Positions 40,877 through 49,174 of a stretch of 64,000 nt of DNA are shown here, piece after piece. The stretch spans positions 883,613-947,612 of the forward strand of contig CP070761.1 in the NCBI GenBank assembly GCA_020348985.1, given 5' to 3'. Position 1 is the first letter of the stretch. The number at the start of each line of letters is the position of its first letter. The translations under genes and the position numbers were made by a program. Source of the stretch: Candidatus Thorarchaeota archaeon. Lineage in GTDB: Archaea > Asgardarchaeota > Thorarchaeia > Thorarchaeales > Thorarchaeaceae. The notes beneath the pieces are model-generated. The model was not told the DNA's origin, did no database searches, and saw only the letters and a list, made by a program, of their open reading frames with translations.

Positions 40877-43027
40877 GTGATAGGAATGCCCATTGACAAG
40901 AAGAAGATACCTCAGTCAAAGATCAAAATAATAGGCGACTTCATTTCTTGGGCAGCAGAATGTGCAGAGTCTGTGGCAAATGGGAATAGACCTGAAATAG
41001 GCAAGGGGCTTTTCGGCGAGAGTGGAGAGCTCATTGTCTACGAGATTCTAAGACATTTCGAAGTTGATGCTTCCTCACTTTCATATGCGCTGGAAGTAGA
41101 TGAGAGACTCGCTGAGGTCTTCAGAGACATCCTTGCCAGGATTTCGACCGAGGACTATCTCGACTGTGCTACACTTTGCATGTATGGATTCATAATTGGA
41201 AACTACACTGATGAGGATTTTCGCTACGTCTACAGGTATTCGCTAGGACGTCTGAAAGACAGGAAGCTCGTGGAAGACTGGCTAAGAAAAGCCCTCGTAT
41301 TCCTTGCCGCATGCAAATATGAGTCTGAGAGAGAGATTCTTGCAGAAGTTCGCGAATTGATCAGGTATCTCGGTGCCCCATTGCCAAACCCCCGAACGTA
41401 TTTGGAAACCTGCAATGAACTTGGAATTGACATCGAGCAAATGCTAGTCCAAGAAGACTATCGTCTTGTTGACACAATCAGACGTCATACGAAATACCTA
41501 GAAGAAGCTACTGGCAGCAAAACCTACCTTGAAATCTGGACCCAGTCTTCTGAGTGGCTGCCTGACGCTCTCTCATCAAGAATCCTTAGAATGTACAGAG
41601 AGCGGGCATACCGCGAGGTCCAGTCAGAGATTCCAGAAACGACACCTGCGAAGCAAGCATTCGACCTCGTGAAGAAACACTTCAAGGAGATAGGTTTCCA
41701 GAGCGATAAGGACGCAGTTCTACCTATCAGATTGCAGGAGCTTCCAACCTCCCCGCCCCCGGAAGCTATTGATCCATCCGTCTTCGAAATGATACCGCAG
41801 AAGCTGAGGATTAATCTCCTACCTTCTATGGCGTACTATACGGCCACAAAGAGAATTGAAATCATCTTCCTGGGAGGCCCTCGTATTGGTAGGAGCAGTG
41901 TACTAATCAAAACCGACACGGGAGGAATCTTACTTGATTATGGACTGTCGGTTGCAAACCAAAAGATTCCAGAGTGGGCCCCAGAACTGGAGATGATTGA
42001 TACCGTCATTGTATCACACGCCCATCTGGATCATGTTGGTGGTCTGCCGGTACTTTACGACACATACTCGGGGAAATGGTGCTCAACTGGGATGACTGGT
42101 GCCATTACCAAGGTCCTCCTAGATGACGCAATCAGTATAGGTACTCCGGCGCCACCAAGAAGTAGAGACCGGACGGACCTCATCTCACGACTCAATCAAT
42201 CTAATGTGGACAAAGTGACGAAAAACCACGTGAAGCTTGAAATAGGGAAGAGCAGTGAGGTGGGACCGGGGATTGTTGTAACGCCGATTGACGCATGCCA
42301 CATACCTGGAAGTACCTCATTGCTCATTGACATAGAGGGCAAGAAGATTCTCTACACTGGGGATTTCAACATAGACAGTTCTGTGCTGTTCCAAGGGGCA
42401 AGTCTGCCAACTGATATTGATGTCGTCATGTTTGATGGAACCTACTGGGCACGTGAAGACTTCGACCGTGCCCAAGTGACAAGAACGATTCAAGACGTCA
42501 TAGAAAACCACGGGCCAGTGGTCATTCCAAGCTTTGCTGTTGGCCGGTCACAGGAAATCTTGATGATTCTTGAGGGCCTTGGTATAACAAGGACGCGCAA
42601 CGTGATGGTTGCAGGTATGGCCGAACGTGTAACGAAGCTTGCCGGCATCAACGGCAGATGGTCAGGAATGAAGAAGAACAAGGTTGTCCTTGAGAAGGAT
42701 GATGTTCTGGTTGCTGGAGGTGGAATGATGGGAGGTGGCCTTGCGAGGCATCACTTCAAAGAGCATCAGAATGACCCAAGGGCCGCGGTTATTCTGTGTG
42801 GCTACCTAGCACCAAGAACTCCTGGATGGAACCTACACAACGGATATGAACCTCATAGTTGTCGAGTGCAATATGCAAGGCTAAGCGCTCACTCATCTGC
42901 CAGCAATCTCGAGCGGTATATCAAGTCGTGCAAAGGAAAGCGTGTGATGCTACACACTCCTCATGAAGGAAGACCAAGGGGAGTCACAATCCCAGAACGT
43001 GCCTCGAAATTGGTCCTCAATGTCTAG
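40877..43027 (+). CDS. Metallo-beta-lactamase/beta-CASP-like nuclease with large unknown N-terminal domain
   Basis: SHAHLDH, HIPGS, YTGD, PSFAVGRSQE and SAH, all after about residue 325. Confidence 0.88.
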   Translation: MIGMPIDKKKIPQSKIKIIGDFISWAAECAESVANGNRPEIGKGLFGESGELIVYEILRHFEVDASSLSYALEVDERLAEVFRDILARISTEDYLDCATLCMYGFIIGNYTDEDFRYVYRYSLGRLKDRKLVEDWLRKALVFLAACKYESEREILAEVRELIRYLGAPLPNPRTYLETCNELGIDIEQMLVQEDYRLVDTIRRHTKYLEEATGSKTYLEIWTQSSEWLPDALSSRILRMYRERAYREVQSEIPETTPAKQAFDLVKKHFKEIGFQSDKDAVLPIRLQELPTSPPPEAIDPSVFEMIPQKLRINLLPSMAYYTATKRIEIIFLGGPRIGRSSVLIKTDTGGILLDYGLSVANQKIPEWAPELEMIDTVIVSHAHLDHVGGLPVLYDTYSGKWCSTGMTGAITKVLLDDAISIGTPAPPRSRDRTDLISRLNQSNVDKVTKNHVKLEIGKSSEVGPGIVVTPIDACHIPGSTSLLIDIEGKKILYTGDFNIDSSVLFQGASLPTDIDVVMFDGTYWAREDFDRAQVTRTIQDVIENHGPVVIPSFAVGRSQEILMILEGLGITRTRNVMVAGMAERVTKLAGINGRWSGMKKNKVVLEKDDVLVAGGGMMGGGLARHHFKEHQNDPRAAVILCGYLAPRTPGWNLHNGYEPHSCRVQYARLSAHSSASNLERYIKSCKGKRVMLHTPHEGRPRGVTIPERASKLVLNV

Positions 43028-43041
43028 ATGTTGCACAGAAA

Positions 43042-44979
43042 TCATGCTACTACTTCAAGGATGCCGCCAAGAACAAGCTTCTGCGTTACAAACTTCATCG
43101 GCGTCATGCTTACATTAAGTCTTCTCACGATGTCTTCCAGAGGAATAGTGCCATCACACATCTGAATGAACTGCACAATCACCTGTCCATAGGCTTTCAC
43201 AATCTCTTCTGGCGGAGGCCCAATCTTGCGGAGAATGCTTGATTCCGCAACTTCGACTTGGAAATCGATCCAGCCATAATGATTCATTATCTGGAGACAC
43301 CCAAGTACCTGGTCTCTTGGAAGGTCGATGCTTCTGACTATTCCACCAACGGACTCTGATCCATCTATTGCATTCTTAATCGCAACAAGGGCACGGCCAA
43401 CTTCCATATTATTGAACGGGAGCGGTCTTCCTGCTTCTCTCGATCGAGCAATATAGTCAAGGCTTACTGGGGCTAGTGGTAGCTTTTTGAGAACATCGAA
43501 CACGGATGGCTCAAATACACTCGGATCCCCATCCCATGAATCCCAAACATCCATGTAGTCCTGCTCAAAGTCCACAAGAAGTGAGGTCATTAGCCCTCTT
43601 TGCTCTTCTTCTTGACTGTCATTTGTCACTATCAGAGCAACGACGAAGTGTGTTGACTTCTCTATCATTACAAGATTGCCTTCATGCTCGATAGTCTCCA
43701 GGGCATCTGTACTGGATGCCCGGCCGTCTGGACCTGCATCGATTCCTCCAAACGTATCTAGAGCGGAAATCAATGATGCAACCGAATTGACATCAATCTC
43801 CTCTCCTTCATAGCTCAGATGAAAGGCAATGCTTCCTTGGCCCGGGCCTTGTACAATGAGCATAAGGTGAAGAATACGCGGAGGAACGTCGAGGCCAGTG
43901 GCAACAAGGGGAGGGGCCGGTTCTGTTCCAGTTGCAGTTACCTCTACAGTGGCTGGTACAGTGGACTCCGTTGCGTCAGAAACAGCAGTCGTGCCAGTCT
44001 CGCCTTCGGTCTCTATATAGGGCACATCCTCGAAGCCTGCCTCTGTAGGATCAACCCTAGCGAGCGATGCATCTACCTCTTCAGTACGCCTGCGCACAAC
44101 GATCATGTCACTGACAGGCATATCAGGCAAGGTGACTCCAACAGTCTTAGTAGCGACCTCAAGCATGAATTTGATAAACTCCTCTCTTCGGGTCTTGTCT
44201 GTGGCAACCATAGCGAAGGTATGTGCTCCCAGAAGTCGCTGGATTTTCTCCCCACGCATCGACTCAGGTAAGTCCTGTTTGTTGGCTACAATGAAGAGAG
44301 GGACAGCAGGAGCTTCCTTCCTGATGTTACGAAGAAGCCCCTTGGTCTGCATCACGTTTCTAAAGCTCGAGTCAGTAATTAGGAATATCACGTCGGTTCC
44401 GCCGAAGTAGAATGACCAGAGGTCCTGAAAGACAGCCTGTCCAGCAAAATCCCAAATAGTCATTAAATAAGTTCCAAATTGGATTGTTTCGCTGCTGTCT
44501 ACAGCTACGTTGATAGTGGGCACATAGCCACCTGGCGCAGGTTCCCTGCCAAACAGCAGTCGCATCAATGTGCTCTTGCCAACACCACCTGAACCAACGA
44601 AGGAAATCTTGAAGCGCGTGAAAATCAGTTCTCCAAGAATATCCTCGAGGTTATCCCGAATGTAGCCAATGCTGTTTCCACGAAGCGCAGTTGTAATTCT
44701 TGAAGCTCCTTCTCTTACCTTATGCTGGATTGTACGATCTTCATCCCGGCCGTCTGTAACGAAGATAAGTAGAAGCTCGTCTCCGACAAGAGAATGGAAG
44801 ATCTTGTGAGTGTTGACGAAGATAGGTGTGTCCTGGGCAAGACCGTCAGTCGTGAGCAAGTCTTTCCAGCCGACCAAGAACTCTTGGATGTCGGCATCAC
44901 CGAACTCGATTTTCCAGAACCACTGTCTGGTGACAACGCCACCATCAATTTTGTCAATGAGTAGGACGTTGTGTATCAA
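43042..44979 (-). CDS. Longin - small GTPase - longin - 2x winged-helix protein (intact GTPase)
   Basis: G1 GSGGVGKS, G2 YVPT, G3 WDFAGQ, G4 NKQD. Flanking longin-like beta-beta-alpha-beta-beta-beta-alpha segments and two DG-x-x-(S/P)-h winged-helix-like repeats are inferred from sequence pattern. Confidence 0.88.
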   Translation of the reverse strand: MIHNVLLIDKIDGGVVTRQWFWKIEFGDADIQEFLVGWKDLLTTDGLAQDTPIFVNTHKIFHSLVGDELLLIFVTDGRDEDRTIQHKVREGASRITTALRGNSIGYIRDNLEDILGELIFTRFKISFVGSGGVGKSTLMRLLFGREPAPGGYVPTINVAVDSSETIQFGTYLMTIWDFAGQAVFQDLWSFYFGGTDVIFLITDSSFRNVMQTKGLLRNIRKEAPAVPLFIVANKQDLPESMRGEKIQRLLGAHTFAMVATDKTRREEFIKFMLEVATKTVGVTLPDMPVSDMIVVRRRTEEVDASLARVDPTEAGFEDVPYIETEGETGTTAVSDATESTVPATVEVTATGTEPAPPLVATGLDVPPRILHLMLIVQGPGQGSIAFHLSYEGEEIDVNSVASLISALDTFGGIDAGPDGRASSTDALETIEHEGNLVMIEKSTHFVVALIVTNDSQEEEQRGLMTSLLVDFEQDYMDVWDSWDGDPSVFEPSVFDVLKKLPLAPVSLDYIARSREAGRPLPFNNMEVGRALVAIKNAIDGSESVGGIVRSIDLPRDQVLGCLQIMNHYGWIDFQVEVAESSILRKIGPPPEEIVKAYGQVIVQFIQMCDGTIPLEDIVRRLNVSMTPMKFVTQKLVLGGILEVVA

Positions 44980-45126
44980 TCTTGTTCACACCTTCGGTCG
45001 ATTTTCGAACACAGTTCTGTTTGTGGCACCAGTTCACTGCTTTTGTAGCACATTCTCTGCTGATAGGATAGTGTCTTTCTGGCGCATATAAGGGATTTCT
45101 TAACGAATATATCGCCCATCAGCAAC

Positions 45127-46821
45127 TCAGTCCTTAAGGGTTATGAAGCCCCTGTTGTACAGCTCTATGAAGACTGTTATGAGCACTGATGTATCAATAC
45201 TAGTTTCTTTTGACAGTTCAGATATCGATTTCGCTCCATCAATCAAGGGAAGAATCTCGGCTAGGTGAGAGTACATCTCCTTGACTTCATCATCTACGGG
45301 CTTTGCCAAAACGGGCACATCGGATTCCTTCATTTGAAGCCTAACTTGCACGACGCCCAGTCTGTGGAGGAAATGTAGCGCCCCGAGTACAATTCCACCG
45401 TCCTTTCCTTGCAGTAGATCTGAGACCGTCTTTTCACCATCAAGGCTTTCCCACACCGTTCTGAGAAAGGTCTTCATCAGCGCCACCTCGAAGCTTTCCC
45501 ATTCGGGAGTGGCGACGTGGTAGGGTACGAATCTCCCGGGCCATGCTTCTGGTGGAAGAGCTGCAAGTAGCTTCAGTGTAAATGGTGGGAACGAGTATAA
45601 ATTGCTGGGATCTTCAATTATGCTGGGGGGGTCTTCAGAATACAACTCTGGTAGGAAAGAGAATCTCTCACGAATCTTCTCAGTGTCGGTTCGGTTTCCG
45701 GTTATCAAAGTAAATATCAAGTCACCATGGGGAATCATCGCGTAGTCCAAGTTTCCAGCCTTGAACACTGATGTAACTTCTCTTTGTCCTCGCTCTATGT
45801 TGAACTCGGATATTGCCGCCACAATGTTTGGCGCCCTTTCTAGAACCCTAGCTATCTCATCATAGTAATATGAAAAGACTGCTCTGCCATCTGTCTTGTC
45901 AATAATGAAGAATGCTTGATGGCCAAGGTCACCTTCATCTTCACTAACTGGATGCGTTGAATCCAATGGTTCCAGTTCAATCTGCCACCGTTCTCTGGCA
46001 AGTTCGGCATGTAGTTCCGTGAAACCTGCAATTGGCAACAGATTCAGGATGAGCTCAGTAGGATCCGAAGACACCGAATCACATAGGTCTAGATCGAGGT
46101 CCGTCTCGAACTTGCGAGCAAACTCTAGCTGGCCATCTCCGCTTGGAACGACAATGATGGGTGCCCGCGTGTTGGCTCGGATTCTGCTAATATGCGGCCG
46201 GAGTTCGTTGGGACTTCCAAGCTCCTGGTTGGCCACGTATACAAACGCGTCAACTCGCTTCAGATCACCAGACCAATTAGTCTCCGGGATCTCACTGAAA
46301 GATAGTCTAGCAGCCTCAATTGAAAAGGGACCCATTGCAAAAGGATTTGTGAAGAATCGAGATTCGGCTCTATTCGTAGATATCAAACCAGCAACTGCGG
46401 TTCCCGAAGAATCGTCCTTTGCAGGTTGAGCCGAGGAGATGAAGCAGAAAGCTAGCGGTTTCCTTAGATTGGAATCTGCCATCTCTGAAAATTGGCTCTT
46501 GGCATCCCTAACTGATGTCAGTTCTGATTGCAGGCGAAAAGCTTGAGCAAGTGCCTCAAGCCGCTCACTCTCTCCTTCGGGAGGTTCTAGGGAATCAGAC
46601 ACTGCAATCACGATAGTCTCTAGAGTGGCACGACAAATGAAGTATGCTTGCTCACCTAGTTTTCCTGAGACAGACTGACTAGCAGTTCTAGATTGATCCA
46701 CAGCAAAGAACGTGTCAACTGCAGCTGTCAGCAATTCATCACCAACCTCATCTTTTGAGAACGAGTGTGTGCCTAGGACCTTTGCACTTCTCAGGTCATA
46801 GAGCGCCGCAGCCAGGATCAA
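45127..46821 (-). CDS. Paralogue of the preceding gene with degenerate (pseudo-)GTPase domain
   Basis: Colinear domain pattern with 43042-44979. Start set at TTG 46821, with GGAGG about 11 nt upstream; the ORF opens at 46971. Confidence 0.8.
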   Translation of the reverse strand: MILAAALYDLRSAKVLGTHSFSKDEVGDELLTAAVDTFFAVDQSRTASQSVSGKLGEQAYFICRATLETIVIAVSDSLEPPEGESERLEALAQAFRLQSELTSVRDAKSQFSEMADSNLRKPLAFCFISSAQPAKDDSSGTAVAGLISTNRAESRFFTNPFAMGPFSIEAARLSFSEIPETNWSGDLKRVDAFVYVANQELGSPNELRPHISRIRANTRAPIIVVPSGDGQLEFARKFETDLDLDLCDSVSSDPTELILNLLPIAGFTELHAELARERWQIELEPLDSTHPVSEDEGDLGHQAFFIIDKTDGRAVFSYYYDEIARVLERAPNIVAAISEFNIERGQREVTSVFKAGNLDYAMIPHGDLIFTLITGNRTDTEKIRERFSFLPELYSEDPPSIIEDPSNLYSFPPFTLKLLAALPPEAWPGRFVPYHVATPEWESFEVALMKTFLRTVWESLDGEKTVSDLLQGKDGGIVLGALHFLHRLGVVQVRLQMKESDVPVLAKPVDDEVKEMYSHLAEILPLIDGAKSISELSKETSIDTSVLITVFIELYNRGFITLKD

Positions 46822-46927: not shown

Positions 46928-49174
46928 CTACGATATTCGTCGGAATGCTTCGAGGATTTCGTCCGCTTCACCCTTCGGTGTCAGTCTTCGCTCAAGAACT
47001 GAAGCCACATCCTTTGATTCTAGTCCGTAGAGGCTAAAGACAACGGCATCTATAGCAGTACTAGAGCCATCACCATGTTCAACATATTTCTTAGCACCAG
47101 AAATCAGTCTATCTACGAGAGTCGGTTTTTTTCCTCGGAGATTAGAAAACGGATCCACAATAGGCAATGCAGAAAGTTCCCTATTCGACACATGGTTGTT
47201 GAAGCTGGTCAAAGAGAACCGCCAGTTGAGGAGTTCGGAATTGAGAATGCCTAGCAGGAAGTACAAGTAGTCTTCGACAATCCCTTCATTCAGTGTGATG
47301 TAATTGCAGGAGTTCGCAAGAATAGTTTTGGGCTCAATGATTGAGAATTTGAGGCGCCATCGCTGGGACCTGTTAGAGACCTGTTGGCAAGCGATGCGTC
47401 TGAGTCTTACATGTCTCTTCCGTCTCGATTCCCCCCGGCTCTTGAGAAACGCAGTAGTATCAACGTACTCAGCCTTCCCACTCTTCCGGCCACGGGGCAC
47501 AAACCTTCCTATATCTGAACCACGAAGAAGGTGTGAGTCTTTTGGACTGTCGGAGATGTACTTCCTGTCTAGTGTTAGGTCGAGTTCACCTCTCCGGTTC
47601 TGTAGCCAAGGGAGAGAATCCATCCTATTGTGAACATGAAGTTTCTTCAGTACCCTCCAATCCAATTTATCCACCGGAGGGATTATCATCTCGGGACCCA
47701 GCACCTGTCGAATATCACTTAAGTCAAGTCTAGTCCTTGATTTGCTTCCAGCCTCCAAGATGCTGGAAAGACCAAACTCAGCATCAACTGATTTCGACGT
47801 TCCACCTTTTTCAAGCACAACTATACACACTGATTGCGTCACCCCAGAGAAGAGTCGAGCACCTTCTGGGAATTCCTCGACAGATTCTACGCTGTTGTTA
47901 GTGAGTAGCTCTTGCCGAAGTTTGACGGCTGAAAAGTCACCCAATAGCGTGGATGGAACAATGCAGCCAATCCTGCTTCCAGTCCTCACAAGCTGGAGAG
48001 CTCGTTCCAAGAAAAGCTGATAGGTGTTAATCGTTCCTCGGTTTGCGTACGAGTATTCGCCAGAATCACGGAAGTATTTGGCACATTCAAGAATTCTAGT
48101 GCGATGTTCCTCGAACTCCTTCAGCACCAATTCCCTCGGTCCAACTTGGAGTCGGTCACGTAGAAATTCAGCCTTGTTAGGCCTGATTCGCCCATAAGGC
48201 GGATTCATCACAACAAAATCAAACCCGGGGTTGCTCTCAGAAAAGACCTCGGGAAACTCACTTTTCCACTCGAATCCTATGTGGGGACCTGATTGTCTGA
48301 AGAACACACTGAGTTCCTTATTGCCGTCCCAGCCTTTCAACGAAATCAGTGAATCGCCAGGTCTAAGCTTCGCAGAAGATCCTATCTGGCCTCCCTCGTT
48401 CAAATCACCACATGTCAGAGCCAGGCAAACCGATGCAACTTCTAAGCTCGCCTGGTCAATGTCGATCCCATATAGGTTAGAGAGAAACTGGCTTGTAGTC
48501 TCATTGAAACCAACGGAAGCCAAGTCCTGTTTTGAGAGGCCAGCCTCATTGGCAGCTTCAGTTATCTTGTGCAGTCGTTTCCGAAAGACGTCAAGTGAAG
48601 AAAGGAGAAAGACACCTGGACCACATGCAGGGTCAAGTACCCTAAGCTCCATGATTGCAAGAATCGAGGCAAGACCATTCTCGCCGATTCTTCTTACAAG
48701 AAGGTCAAGGTGTGGTCCGATTGTTCTCTCGCAGATATAGTCAGAAACCTCACGGGGAGTGTAGAAAACACCAAGGTCTTTGGGTGAATCTCTGCTTTTG
48801 AAAGCCTGAGGAGAAAGCCTCGAGCACAAAGAGTGTATTTGGGAGAGGATCTCGGACAGATTTCGAGTGTTGATGGTGGGGAGCAATTGCTGCATTTCCG
48901 ATCCTATCGAACTCTGTACGATATCTGGCACCGAGGATTCAGGTCCTTTTGGAGATACACCAGATTTGGCGGCTGCTGATGATATGGCCGAGAAATAAAA
49001 CGAATCTTCGATTGATTCATCGGTTCCTAGATGAGTCCTAATAGCCCAATTCAAGCTGGCTAGTCTTACAATCTCTGTGAAATGCAATCCTGCGTCGTCA
49101 GCGAGTTGCTCTCTGGCGGCCCTGCTAACCATGGCCACAATCTGTGAAGCTAGTCCGCCACTCATTTCTGTCAA
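46928..49174 (-). CDS. N6-adenine DNA methyltransferase (Eco57I/TaqI-like gamma class) with C-terminal TRD
   Basis: GVFYTP, LDPACGPG, YGIDID, NPPY, and C-terminal LLGILNS. Confidence 0.92.
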   Translation of the reverse strand: MTEMSGGLASQIVAMVSRAAREQLADDAGLHFTEIVRLASLNWAIRTHLGTDESIEDSFYFSAISSAAAKSGVSPKGPESSVPDIVQSSIGSEMQQLLPTINTRNLSEILSQIHSLCSRLSPQAFKSRDSPKDLGVFYTPREVSDYICERTIGPHLDLLVRRIGENGLASILAIMELRVLDPACGPGVFLLSSLDVFRKRLHKITEAANEAGLSKQDLASVGFNETTSQFLSNLYGIDIDQASLEVASVCLALTCGDLNEGGQIGSSAKLRPGDSLISLKGWDGNKELSVFFRQSGPHIGFEWKSEFPEVFSESNPGFDFVVMNPPYGRIRPNKAEFLRDRLQVGPRELVLKEFEEHRTRILECAKYFRDSGEYSYANRGTINTYQLFLERALQLVRTGSRIGCIVPSTLLGDFSAVKLRQELLTNNSVESVEEFPEGARLFSGVTQSVCIVVLEKGGTSKSVDAEFGLSSILEAGSKSRTRLDLSDIRQVLGPEMIIPPVDKLDWRVLKKLHVHNRMDSLPWLQNRRGELDLTLDRKYISDSPKDSHLLRGSDIGRFVPRGRKSGKAEYVDTTAFLKSRGESRRKRHVRLRRIACQQVSNRSQRWRLKFSIIEPKTILANSCNYITLNEGIVEDYLYFLLGILNSELLNWRFSLTSFNNHVSNRELSALPIVDPFSNLRGKKPTLVDRLISGAKKYVEHGDGSSTAIDAVVFSLYGLESKDVASVLERRLTPKGEADEILEAFRRIS

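Follow-up and report, generated by a model that had tools for sequence, protein, structure and literature searches.

On the minus strand of a 64,000-nucleotide stretch of a Candidatus Thorarchaeota genome (contig CP070761.1, positions 883,613 to 947,612; hereafter the window), two adjacent genes at window positions 43042-46821, here called A and B, encode large proteins, of which one has the motifs of a working small GTPase and the other looks like a copy that has lost them. The locus thus raises the question of whether the two proteins descend from one gene and act as a pair. It was first posed by a reading of the letters alone (the sequence-only reading), and all of the short protein strings quoted there were present in the two minus-strand open reading frames (ORFs). 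Profile comparisons, structural models and a survey of related genomes showed that A and B are paralogues over their full length, that B has lost the nucleotide-binding motifs, and that a model of the complex supports binding between them. The explanation that we consider rather probable is a Rag-like asymmetric heterodimer in which A cycles, B is the scaffold or allosteric partner, and both proteins carry NPRL2-like tails. The source genome is a single contig of 3.16 Mb, and its nearest protein relatives are annotated as Candidatus Thorarchaeota, of the Asgard lineage.

A and B are colinear paralogues

Family alignments were built for B (alignment A1, 37 sequences) and for A (alignment A2, 35 sequences). 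Comparison of the two family profiles with hhalign gave one colinear alignment of 545 columns, from A 6-654 against B 17-581, with a probability of 97.6% and an E value of 3.7e-12. At the level of profiles this match is far beyond chance, and it confirmed the earlier proposal that A and B are colinear, full-length paralogues. Pairwise BLASTP aligned the C-terminal 120 residues alone (18% identity, E 0.003), and because it covered only the tail, the profile comparison was needed to establish paralogy over the full length. The B profile also matched the C-terminal part of the adjoining A gene in many genomes (E 1e-9 to 1e-13), and a search of 1.84 billion representative proteins found a 626-amino-acid (aa) longin-Arf protein matched over B 13-230 (E 5.7e-5). 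Across the same genomes, A showed about 67% identity and 75% mean column identity, and B about 41% and 59%; by this measure A is far more constrained than B.

Protein A retains the G motifs of an Arf-like GTPase

Analysis of the sequence of A assigned it to the Ras superfamily as an Arf-like small GTPase with G1-G5 all present. The Pfam Arf profile scored 62.1 bits (cut-off 22.3), Roc and Ras were likewise above their cut-offs, and Arf1 chains were the best solved relatives by sequence (E 8e-14). The motifs GSGGVGKS, PTINV, WDFAGQ, ANKQDLP and ATDK were near-invariant among the 35 aligned sequences, and the mean column identity of the G domain was 0.95. The Pfam matches, together with the alignments of 35 A and 37 B sequences, bore out the earlier claim that A alone of the pair keeps the G motifs. 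The N-terminal amphipathic, myristoylated helix that directly precedes the G domain in Arf proper was not found in A. Because a 120-residue longin domain precedes its G domain, A is Arf-related and not a canonical Arf.

The AlphaFold2 model of A had a mean predicted local distance difference test (pLDDT) score of 68.6. Within the acidic and otherwise variable linker that follows the G domain lies the motif GFExVPY (A 315-320, window 44020-44037, minus strand), of which G315 was invariant and E317, V319 and P320 were at least 90% conserved. The hhalign alignment paired this motif with a structured segment of B, AGFxDMHPELARExW (residues 265-279), that belongs to the predicted A:B interface described below. 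The motif could be a reciprocal docking motif, although it made no confident contact in the complex model. At the C-terminus, the two winged-helix-like repeats proposed earlier were recovered in the models of both proteins as two helix-helix-helix-strand-strand units, which in B occupy the last 120-140 residues. The tail of A gave a weak Pfam HTH_47 match, and relatives of this tail passed the Pfam TrmB and HTH_47 cut-offs. The winged helices of A and B had neutral to acidic isoelectric points (pI), which favours protein binding over DNA binding.

Protein B has lost the nucleotide pocket and kept the domain layout

The model of B showed a longin fold at its N-terminus (residues 1-121), with the order strand-strand-helix-strand-strand-strand-helix(-helix). 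Structural alignment with VIA-align matched 107-117 residues of it to delta/zeta-COP, VAMP7, sedlin/Bet5 and AP sigma (Z 10-12.5, root-mean-square deviation 2.7-3.0), and scored Z 9.0 against SRX and Z 9.8 against MglB. The following region, residues 114-274 or so, was modelled as a G-like alpha/beta fold; 136-148 residues aligned to Rab28 (Z 10.0, 148 aligned) and Rab2A (Z 9.8), and Rab23 matched at Z 9.3. In the model the beta2-beta3 hairpin topology was kept, and pLDDT over residues 120-285 was about 85-90. The sequence-only reading had staked the pairing on a G-like middle region of B, and on the model this expectation held, with Rab28 and Rab2A at Z of about 10. Neither GxxxxGK[ST] nor [NT]KxD was found in any of the 37 aligned B-family sequences. 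At the P-loop position stands the acidic stretch CFITGEDPSxEDKSG, and at the G4 position VVPGSD. With these sequences, canonical nucleotide binding by the pseudo-GTPase domain is very unlikely.

The third domain of B matched MglC (Z 9.9, 98 residues aligned) and MP1-p14 (Z 8.6). It had earlier been called a second longin. A domain of the roadblock/longin superfamily is indeed present, but roadblock/MglC and LAMTOR proteins match it equally well, so that it is best called a roadblock/longin-superfamily domain. Taken as one unit, B 122-398 aligned to the Lokiarchaeal Rag-like GTPase LokiRagO (8yl2_A) over 229 residues (Z 9.1). Mean column conservation in B was highest in the roadblock/longin domain (0.76) and, among the folded domains, lowest in the longin (0.53). 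The tail matched 8jj9_B over residues 424-564 (Z 8.8) and 8hkr_B over residues 496-564 (Z 8.9).

Searches of annotated families with B gave no match in Pfam, NCBIfam or PADLOC, and none in Pfam even with single domains at E 5. The B-family profile searched against PDB sequences returned a chance match alone and no NPRL chain. An ESM Atlas feature search with the B tail stayed below 0.9, which makes its results a lead only, and most results of the ESM Atlas fold search were the Thorarchaeota families themselves, with an NPR2 cluster at low TM-scores (0.22/0.34) that aligned to B 1-407 and not to the tail. In three genomes, an otherwise full-length B orthologue carried a single in-frame stop, TAG in two and TAA in one (G383:C1:146966-148654, G384:C3:126587-128275 and G318:C26:45617-47302). 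These stops could be sequencing errors, recent inactivation or read-through.

The predicted A:B contact lies on a conserved patch of the dead domain

A complex of truncated A (1-480) and truncated B (1-400) was modelled, each chain with its own family alignment. The interface score ipSAE was 0.68, 0.66 and 0.65 in the A:B runs (median 0.66) and 0.00 for the best of three controls; this level was attained by 58 of 80 solved complexes and by 2 of 110 mismatched pairs. Between runs, at least 41% of the contacts agreed, with partner pLDDT of at least 73. The model thus supports binding of A to B and does not show it. The confident contacts joined A 205-207, 217 and 238-251, at the start of alpha3 and in alpha4 right after NKQD, to B 232-277, which comprises alpha4-beta6-alpha5 and the following helix. 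The asymmetric heterodimer of the sequence-only reading therefore passed its controls, but the confident contact ran from G domain to pseudo-G domain and not from longin to longin.

The conservation of the dead domain followed the predicted interface. Nine of the 12 confident B interface residues were at least 90% conserved, as against 31 of the 167 positions of the domain (hypergeometric p 1.3e-5). What selection has preserved in the dead domain is the interface patch and not the former pocket. The model paired R248 and K245 of A with D248 and E273 of B, all of which were 97-100% conserved. The two domains also differ in charge, with a median pI of 9.3 (basic) for the G domain of A and a pI of 4.65 (acidic) for the pseudo-G domain of B, which favours A:B pairing over B:B.

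B is confined to one family and directly precedes A

The distribution of both genes was determined in 400 genomes of the phylum. B was found in 77 of the 85 genomes of the window's own family, one family of Thorarchaeia, and in no other Asgard family among the 400 genomes, where short winged-helix matches alone were returned. Full-length A occurred in 83 of the 85 genomes and in the one genome of the sister family (G311). The A matches in another family, f14, had E values of 1e-46 to 1e-70, much poorer than those of full-length orthologues, and may be longin-plus-GTPase relatives. Across the whole library, the B profile had 48 matches, about 25 of them full-length. Because B is confined to one Thorarchaeia family, it represents a lineage-specific duplication and not an ancestral “proto-GATOR1/Rag” module.

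Synteny, which had been proposed as a check, was found in about 60 genomes of the family with both genes on one contig, where B directly precedes A and the distance from the end of B to the start of A is 90-182 bp. In four genomes of one genus, 1.9-3.6 kb were inserted between B and A, and both genes remained intact; no third GTPase component was found in the inserts. The family-wide order of the neighbourhood was TldD/PmbA, acetyltransferase, N6 methyltransferase, sometimes a C5 methyltransferase, B, A, a convergent beta-CASP gene, NAD kinase and NadA.

Comparison with known GTPase systems

Foldseek searches with the whole models of A and B gave chains of Rag/Gtr, NPRL2/NPRL3 (GATOR1/SEAC), Mon1-Ccz1 and Fuzzy-Inturned as the best matches (E 1e-7 to 1e-5). 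The earlier idea of a prokaryotic Rag/GATOR1 analogue holds in that the matches to Rag, NPRL2/3 and Mon1-Ccz1 chains are real, and does not hold as an ancestral module, B being lineage-specific. In the models, A and B resemble the Rag/Gtr GTPases (RagA/B-RagC/D, Gtr1-Gtr2) and LokiRagO (8yl2) and LokiRagM (8zla) in having a G domain followed by a roadblock-type domain, and this unit of A and B matched Rag/Gtr chains at a Foldseek E of about 1e-7 over about 330-380 columns (about 360-380 for A). Rag/Gtr subunits are paired paralogues, and the same would be expected of A and B. Several features set them apart. B has no pocket, whereas in Rag each of the two subunits binds GTP; by sequence, the G domain of A is Arf-like and scored 18.5 bits against the Gtr1_RagA cut-off of 22 (E 0.0015); A and B carry in addition an N-terminal longin and two C-terminal winged helices; and Rag pairs through its roadblocks, whereas the confident A:B contacts join the G to the pseudo-G domain alone. 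Tran et al. 2024 (PMC10933270) had already listed Asgard GTPases that are flanked by a longin and a roadblock domain in one protein, and Asgard “Rag-like” GTPases with longin and/or roadblock fusions have been published (PMC10933270; Liu et al., bioRxiv 10.1101/2020.10.19.343400).

NPRL2 and NPRL3 consist of a longin and winged-helix repeats, as stated in the sequence-only reading and described by Levine et al. 2013 (PMC3747258), and heterodimerise through both their longin and C-terminal domains (PMC8534245). As a paralogous pair with longin and C-terminal winged helices, NPRL2-NPRL3 (Npr2-Npr3, GATOR1/SEACIT) resembles the modelled tails of A and B. Foldseek matched B to the NPRL2/3 chains 8adl_S, 7t3a_C and 9o5a at E 1e-7 to 1e-5, with low TM-scores of 0.13-0.22 by query. 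Unlike A and B, NPRL2/3 have neither a G nor a pseudo-G domain, and neither A nor B gave a Pfam NPR2 or NPR3 match, even with single domains at E 5.

A longin or roadblock joined with an Arf- or Ras-like GTPase is also found in SRX(SRalpha)-SRbeta and MglB-MglA. In A and B, however, longin and GTPase are parts of one chain (fused in cis), the context is neither signal recognition nor motility, and the longin-switch contact of the SRX/MglB type was not predicted with confidence. Like B, the eukaryotic pseudoGTPases (the AAGAB N-terminal domain, CENP-M and dynein LIC; PMC12490416) kept a G-like fold as an interaction module after loss of the motifs; unlike them, B is archaeal, stands beside its active parent gene and keeps the parent's five-domain layout. 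The tri-longin RabGEFs Mon1-Ccz1 and Fuzzy-Inturned matched over about 470 columns (E about 4e-6 to 2e-5), and this assignment was rejected, since the domain in the middle has a G-like fold and is a homologue of the GTPase domain of A. With PADLOC, A matched LeoBC below significance (E 0.004), and no stretch passed. Because A and B fall outside Gtr1_RagA and NPR2/NPR3 and are not tri-longin GEFs (guanine nucleotide exchange factors), they appear to be a variant on known GTPase-platform themes. No account of a GTPase and a pseudo-GTPase that are encoded in tandem and share these five domains was found in the literature searched.

A proposed asymmetric switch and its alternatives

Starting from the observed paralogy, motif loss, synteny and conservation, and from the predicted folds and A:B contact, we infer the direction of regulation and the output as follows. 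A five-domain Asgard GTPase gene would have been duplicated in tandem within Thorarchaeia to give A and B; A would have stayed a canonical GTP-binding and GTP-hydrolysing switch, and B would have lost the nucleotide pocket and kept the fold. The two proteins would most likely form a pseudo-symmetric heterodimer, in which the acidic dead G domain of B docks via alpha4-beta6-alpha5 and the AGFxDMHPELARExW helix onto the basic alpha3/alpha4 face of A, at a site right beside the NKQD base-binding loop. The roadblock domains might pair too, as in the Rag GTPases. Only A would cycle. B would serve it as a fixed scaffold or an allosteric partner, and the output would go through a protein-binding platform made of both NPRL2-like tails, each a roadblock/longin domain with two neutral-to-acidic winged helices.

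Several observations weigh against this proposal. CheY-like receivers reached a comparable score (Z about 9) with the middle domain of B, and the assignment of this domain as a G domain therefore rests on the hairpin topology and on homology to A. The complex test covered the A:B pairing, and close paralogues can pass such a test; moreover, the truncated model, which is without the winged helices, showed no confident roadblock-roadblock or longin-longin contact. Two genomes carried A and no B: G311, of the sister family and 96% complete, and G368, of the window's own family and a single contig. In both, the A side of the interface was just as conserved, as it partly is in a further paralogue, A' (see below), and in Arf proteins generally, so the conservation of the A side is not specific to B. 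It would fit an ancestral face for homodimers that was later taken over by B, though it does not prove one. Upstream of A lies a gene for a caspase/PPC/CUB protein in G311 and for an MFS transporter in G368; the G311 ORF was considered as a diverged B and rejected (hhalign probability 0.2%). Co-occurrence, on which the earlier reading had also leaned, is thus strong but not obligatory. Because two genomes carry A without B, B is dispensable and the A:B pairing is not obligatory, and A may form a homodimer or act alone. Since the whole neighbourhood is syntenic in the family, the adjacency of the two genes by itself says little about a functional link. An alignment of the intergenic regions of 19 genomes showed a semi-conserved box, AAnnTTCATAGA, resembling a B recognition element (BRE) and TATA box, about 20-30 nt past the B stop codon, and a GGAG-like motif ahead of the A start. 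By these signals, transcription of A probably starts from a promoter of its own and gives a leader of about 60-80 nt. The doubt over co-transcription, raised earlier from the 147-nt gap and its TTATAT sequence, is justified, because the BRE/TATA-like box sits just past the B stop.

The alternative that survives best is that B is a dedicated regulator of A, GTPase-activating protein (GAP), GEF or similar to a guanine nucleotide dissociation inhibitor, with a longin/roadblock platform that engages the switches of A as in MglB, Mon1-Ccz1, TRAPP and NPRL2/3. The longin and roadblock folds were confirmed in the models, such folds are known platforms for GTPases in both eukaryotes and bacteria (PMC3747258, PMC10933270), and the Foldseek matches to NPRL2/3 and Mon1-Ccz1 (E 1e-7 to 1e-5) point the same way; a contact beside the NKQD loop of A would also make an effect on nucleotide affinity conceivable. 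We nevertheless regard this alternative as unlikely. The complex model contained no confident contact of the B longin or roadblock with switch I/II of A. Of the scaffold, GEF or GAP roles suggested earlier for the dead copy, the GEF and GAP roles are unsupported. In addition, no arginine finger or GP motif was identified, no residue-level superposition having been made; the longin is the least conserved folded domain of B; and A has its own longin and roadblock in cis.

It is somewhat less probable still that A and B are unlinked, with B a diverged duplicate that serves as the partner of another longin-Arf GTPase or of the stand-alone roadblock-winged-helix protein described below, and an adjacency that was simply inherited. 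The broadly kept gene order, the promoter-like box of A and the two genomes with A and without B would agree with this, and at least two further longin-Arf paralogues and the stand-alone protein offer possible alternative partners. The spacing of 90-182 bp in about 60 genomes argues against it, as do the inserts that left both genes intact, the complex model with its controls at 0.00, the complementary charges of the A G domain and the B pseudo-G domain, and the finding that the predicted interface is the most conserved part of the dead domain.

Organization of the locus and neighbouring genes

The features of the two genes are collected in Table 1. Both genes start with TTG, preceded by the Shine-Dalgarno-like GAAGGTG in A and by GGAGGA, 9 nt upstream, in B. 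A longer ORF of B that begins with GTG and reaches to 46971 was rejected; the start was placed at 46821 because the B family profile begins there. In the seawater metatranscriptome run X20, one contig of 266 nt was identical to 43575-43840 inside gene A. It is a weak hint of transcription of A, DNA carry-over being possible, and it is silent on co-transcription of B and A.

Table 1. Window coordinates and predicted domains of genes A and B
Feature	Residues	Window position	Strand	Description	Basis
Gene A	1-645	43042..44979	-	645 aa: longin, Arf-like GTPase, roadblock/longin, two winged helices; active G1-G5	ORF and translation, Pfam, AlphaFold2 model me49174f6b360
A longin	1-120	44620..44979	-	strand-strand-helix-strand-strand-strand-helix	model; colinear with B longin
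A small-GTPase domain	121-293	44101..44619	-	G1 GSGGVGKS, G2 T155, G3 WDFAGQ, G4 NKQD, G5 ATDK	
A acidic disordered linker	294-365	43885..44100	-	conserved GFExVPY at 315-320	pLDDT <50
A roadblock/longin-superfamily domain	366-478	43546..43884	-	position of the Rag C-terminal roadblock domain (CRD)	model secondary structure
A connector and two winged helices	479-645	43045..43545	-	two helix-helix-helix-strand-strand units	model
B-A intergenic region		44980..45126	-	147 nt; BRE/TATA-like box about 45084-45100, TTATAT 45086-45091; GAAGGTG before the A TTG	
Gene B	1-564	45127..46821	-	564 aa: longin, pseudo-GTPase, roadblock/longin, two winged helices	AlphaFold2 model mf1383c6bc7b8, pLDDT 83.4
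B longin	about 1-118	46468..46821	-		structural matches to longins
B pseudo-GTPase domain	about 119-285	45967..46467	-	no P-loop, DxxG or NKxD; conserved patch 232-277	
B roadblock/longin-superfamily domain	about 298-398	45628..45930	-		MglC and MP1-p14 matches
B connector and two winged helices	399-564	45130..45627	-		model; BLASTP and hhalign colinear with A tail

Downstream, a gene for a beta-CASP/metallo-beta-lactamase protein of 716 aa (40877-43027, plus strand) converges on A, with 14 nt between the stop codons. The protein gave partial aCPSF1 and Cas14-like matches, and its N-terminal 320 aa or so had no Pfam match. The beta-CASP gene stands next to A also in G311, which has no B (40% identity), and the adjacency of beta-CASP and A is therefore older than the A/B pairing. 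Upstream, 106 nt from B, lies a gene for an N6-adenine DNA methyltransferase of the Alw26I/Eco31I/Esp3I type (46928-49174, minus strand), and in other Thorarchaeota genomes an extra C5 methyltransferase gene lies between it and B. Because no restriction endonuclease was seen nearby, the N6 enzyme may be a conserved orphan methyltransferase. A role of A and B in a DNA-modification or defence island, with the methyltransferase(s) so close to B and a nuclease-like beta-CASP gene converging on A even in G311, is most improbable, because A and B had no PADLOC match and G311 keeps A and beta-CASP without B or any methyltransferase; the acidic winged helices, the missing restriction endonuclease and the convergent orientation of beta-CASP, which excludes co-transcription with A, speak against it as well. 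The inserts between B and A (loci L006:2232-3812, minus strand, and L007:2966-6133) contained a 526-aa ORF on the opposite strand with no significant Pfam match; in one genome, an Acyl_transf_3 gene and an ORF of 152 aa were present as well.

Related modules in the same genome

The genome encodes further proteins of this kind. The paralogue A' (605 aa, L009:4376-6193, minus strand) has a longin and an Arf-like G domain 39% identical to A 1-294, and its C-terminal 300 aa or so are unrelated to those of A; the paralogue gave a weak Pfam SRPRB match. Another longin-GTPase, also Arf-like, has 335 aa (L011:4124-5131, minus strand). Among the neighbours scanned against Pfam, no dead twin was found beside A' or the 335-aa paralogue. 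A stand-alone protein of 297 aa (G000:C1:2254023-2254916; L010:4024-4917, plus strand) was homologous to A 375-645 (probability 98.9%) and consists of a roadblock/longin domain and two winged helices; it has an orthologue in G311 (L008:2163-2990). Its layout matches that of NPRL2/NPRL3, longin plus winged-helix repeats (PMC3747258). This protein, or else A and B themselves, may be the “NPRL2-like family in most Thor MAGs” (metagenome-assembled genomes) of Liu et al. (bioRxiv 10.1101/2020.10.19.343400). On this view, the Arf-like GTPase A would carry a longin at its N-terminus and an NPRL2-like tail at its C-terminus, and B would be its dead twin.

Implications

Asgard small GTPases and longin/roadblock proteins are many and seldom lie in operons, so that partner assignments are largely unsettled (PMC10933270). 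Here, nearly all genomes of one Thorarchaeia family have the gene of a GTPase next to that of its full-length dead copy, with a specific, conserved, charge-complementary contact predicted between the two proteins. A bolder form of the heterodimer proposal would make A and B a self-contained archaeal counterpart of the Rag and GATOR1 circuitry, with an Arf/Rag-like GTPase covalently joined to an NPRL2-like longin-winged-helix module, an obligate asymmetric dimer, a dead twin that sets the nucleotide state of A, and a tail truly homologous to NPRL2/3. We think this improbable; if true, it would be a living model of paired GTPase regulators arising by duplication and loss of catalysis. Because B is lineage-specific, the pair has no direct bearing on the ancestor of eukaryotes. 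It offers a directly testable case of a prokaryotic GTPase/pseudo-GTPase heterodimer, and a simple system for the evolution, by duplication, of asymmetric switches such as RagA-RagC and of paired regulators such as NPRL2-NPRL3.

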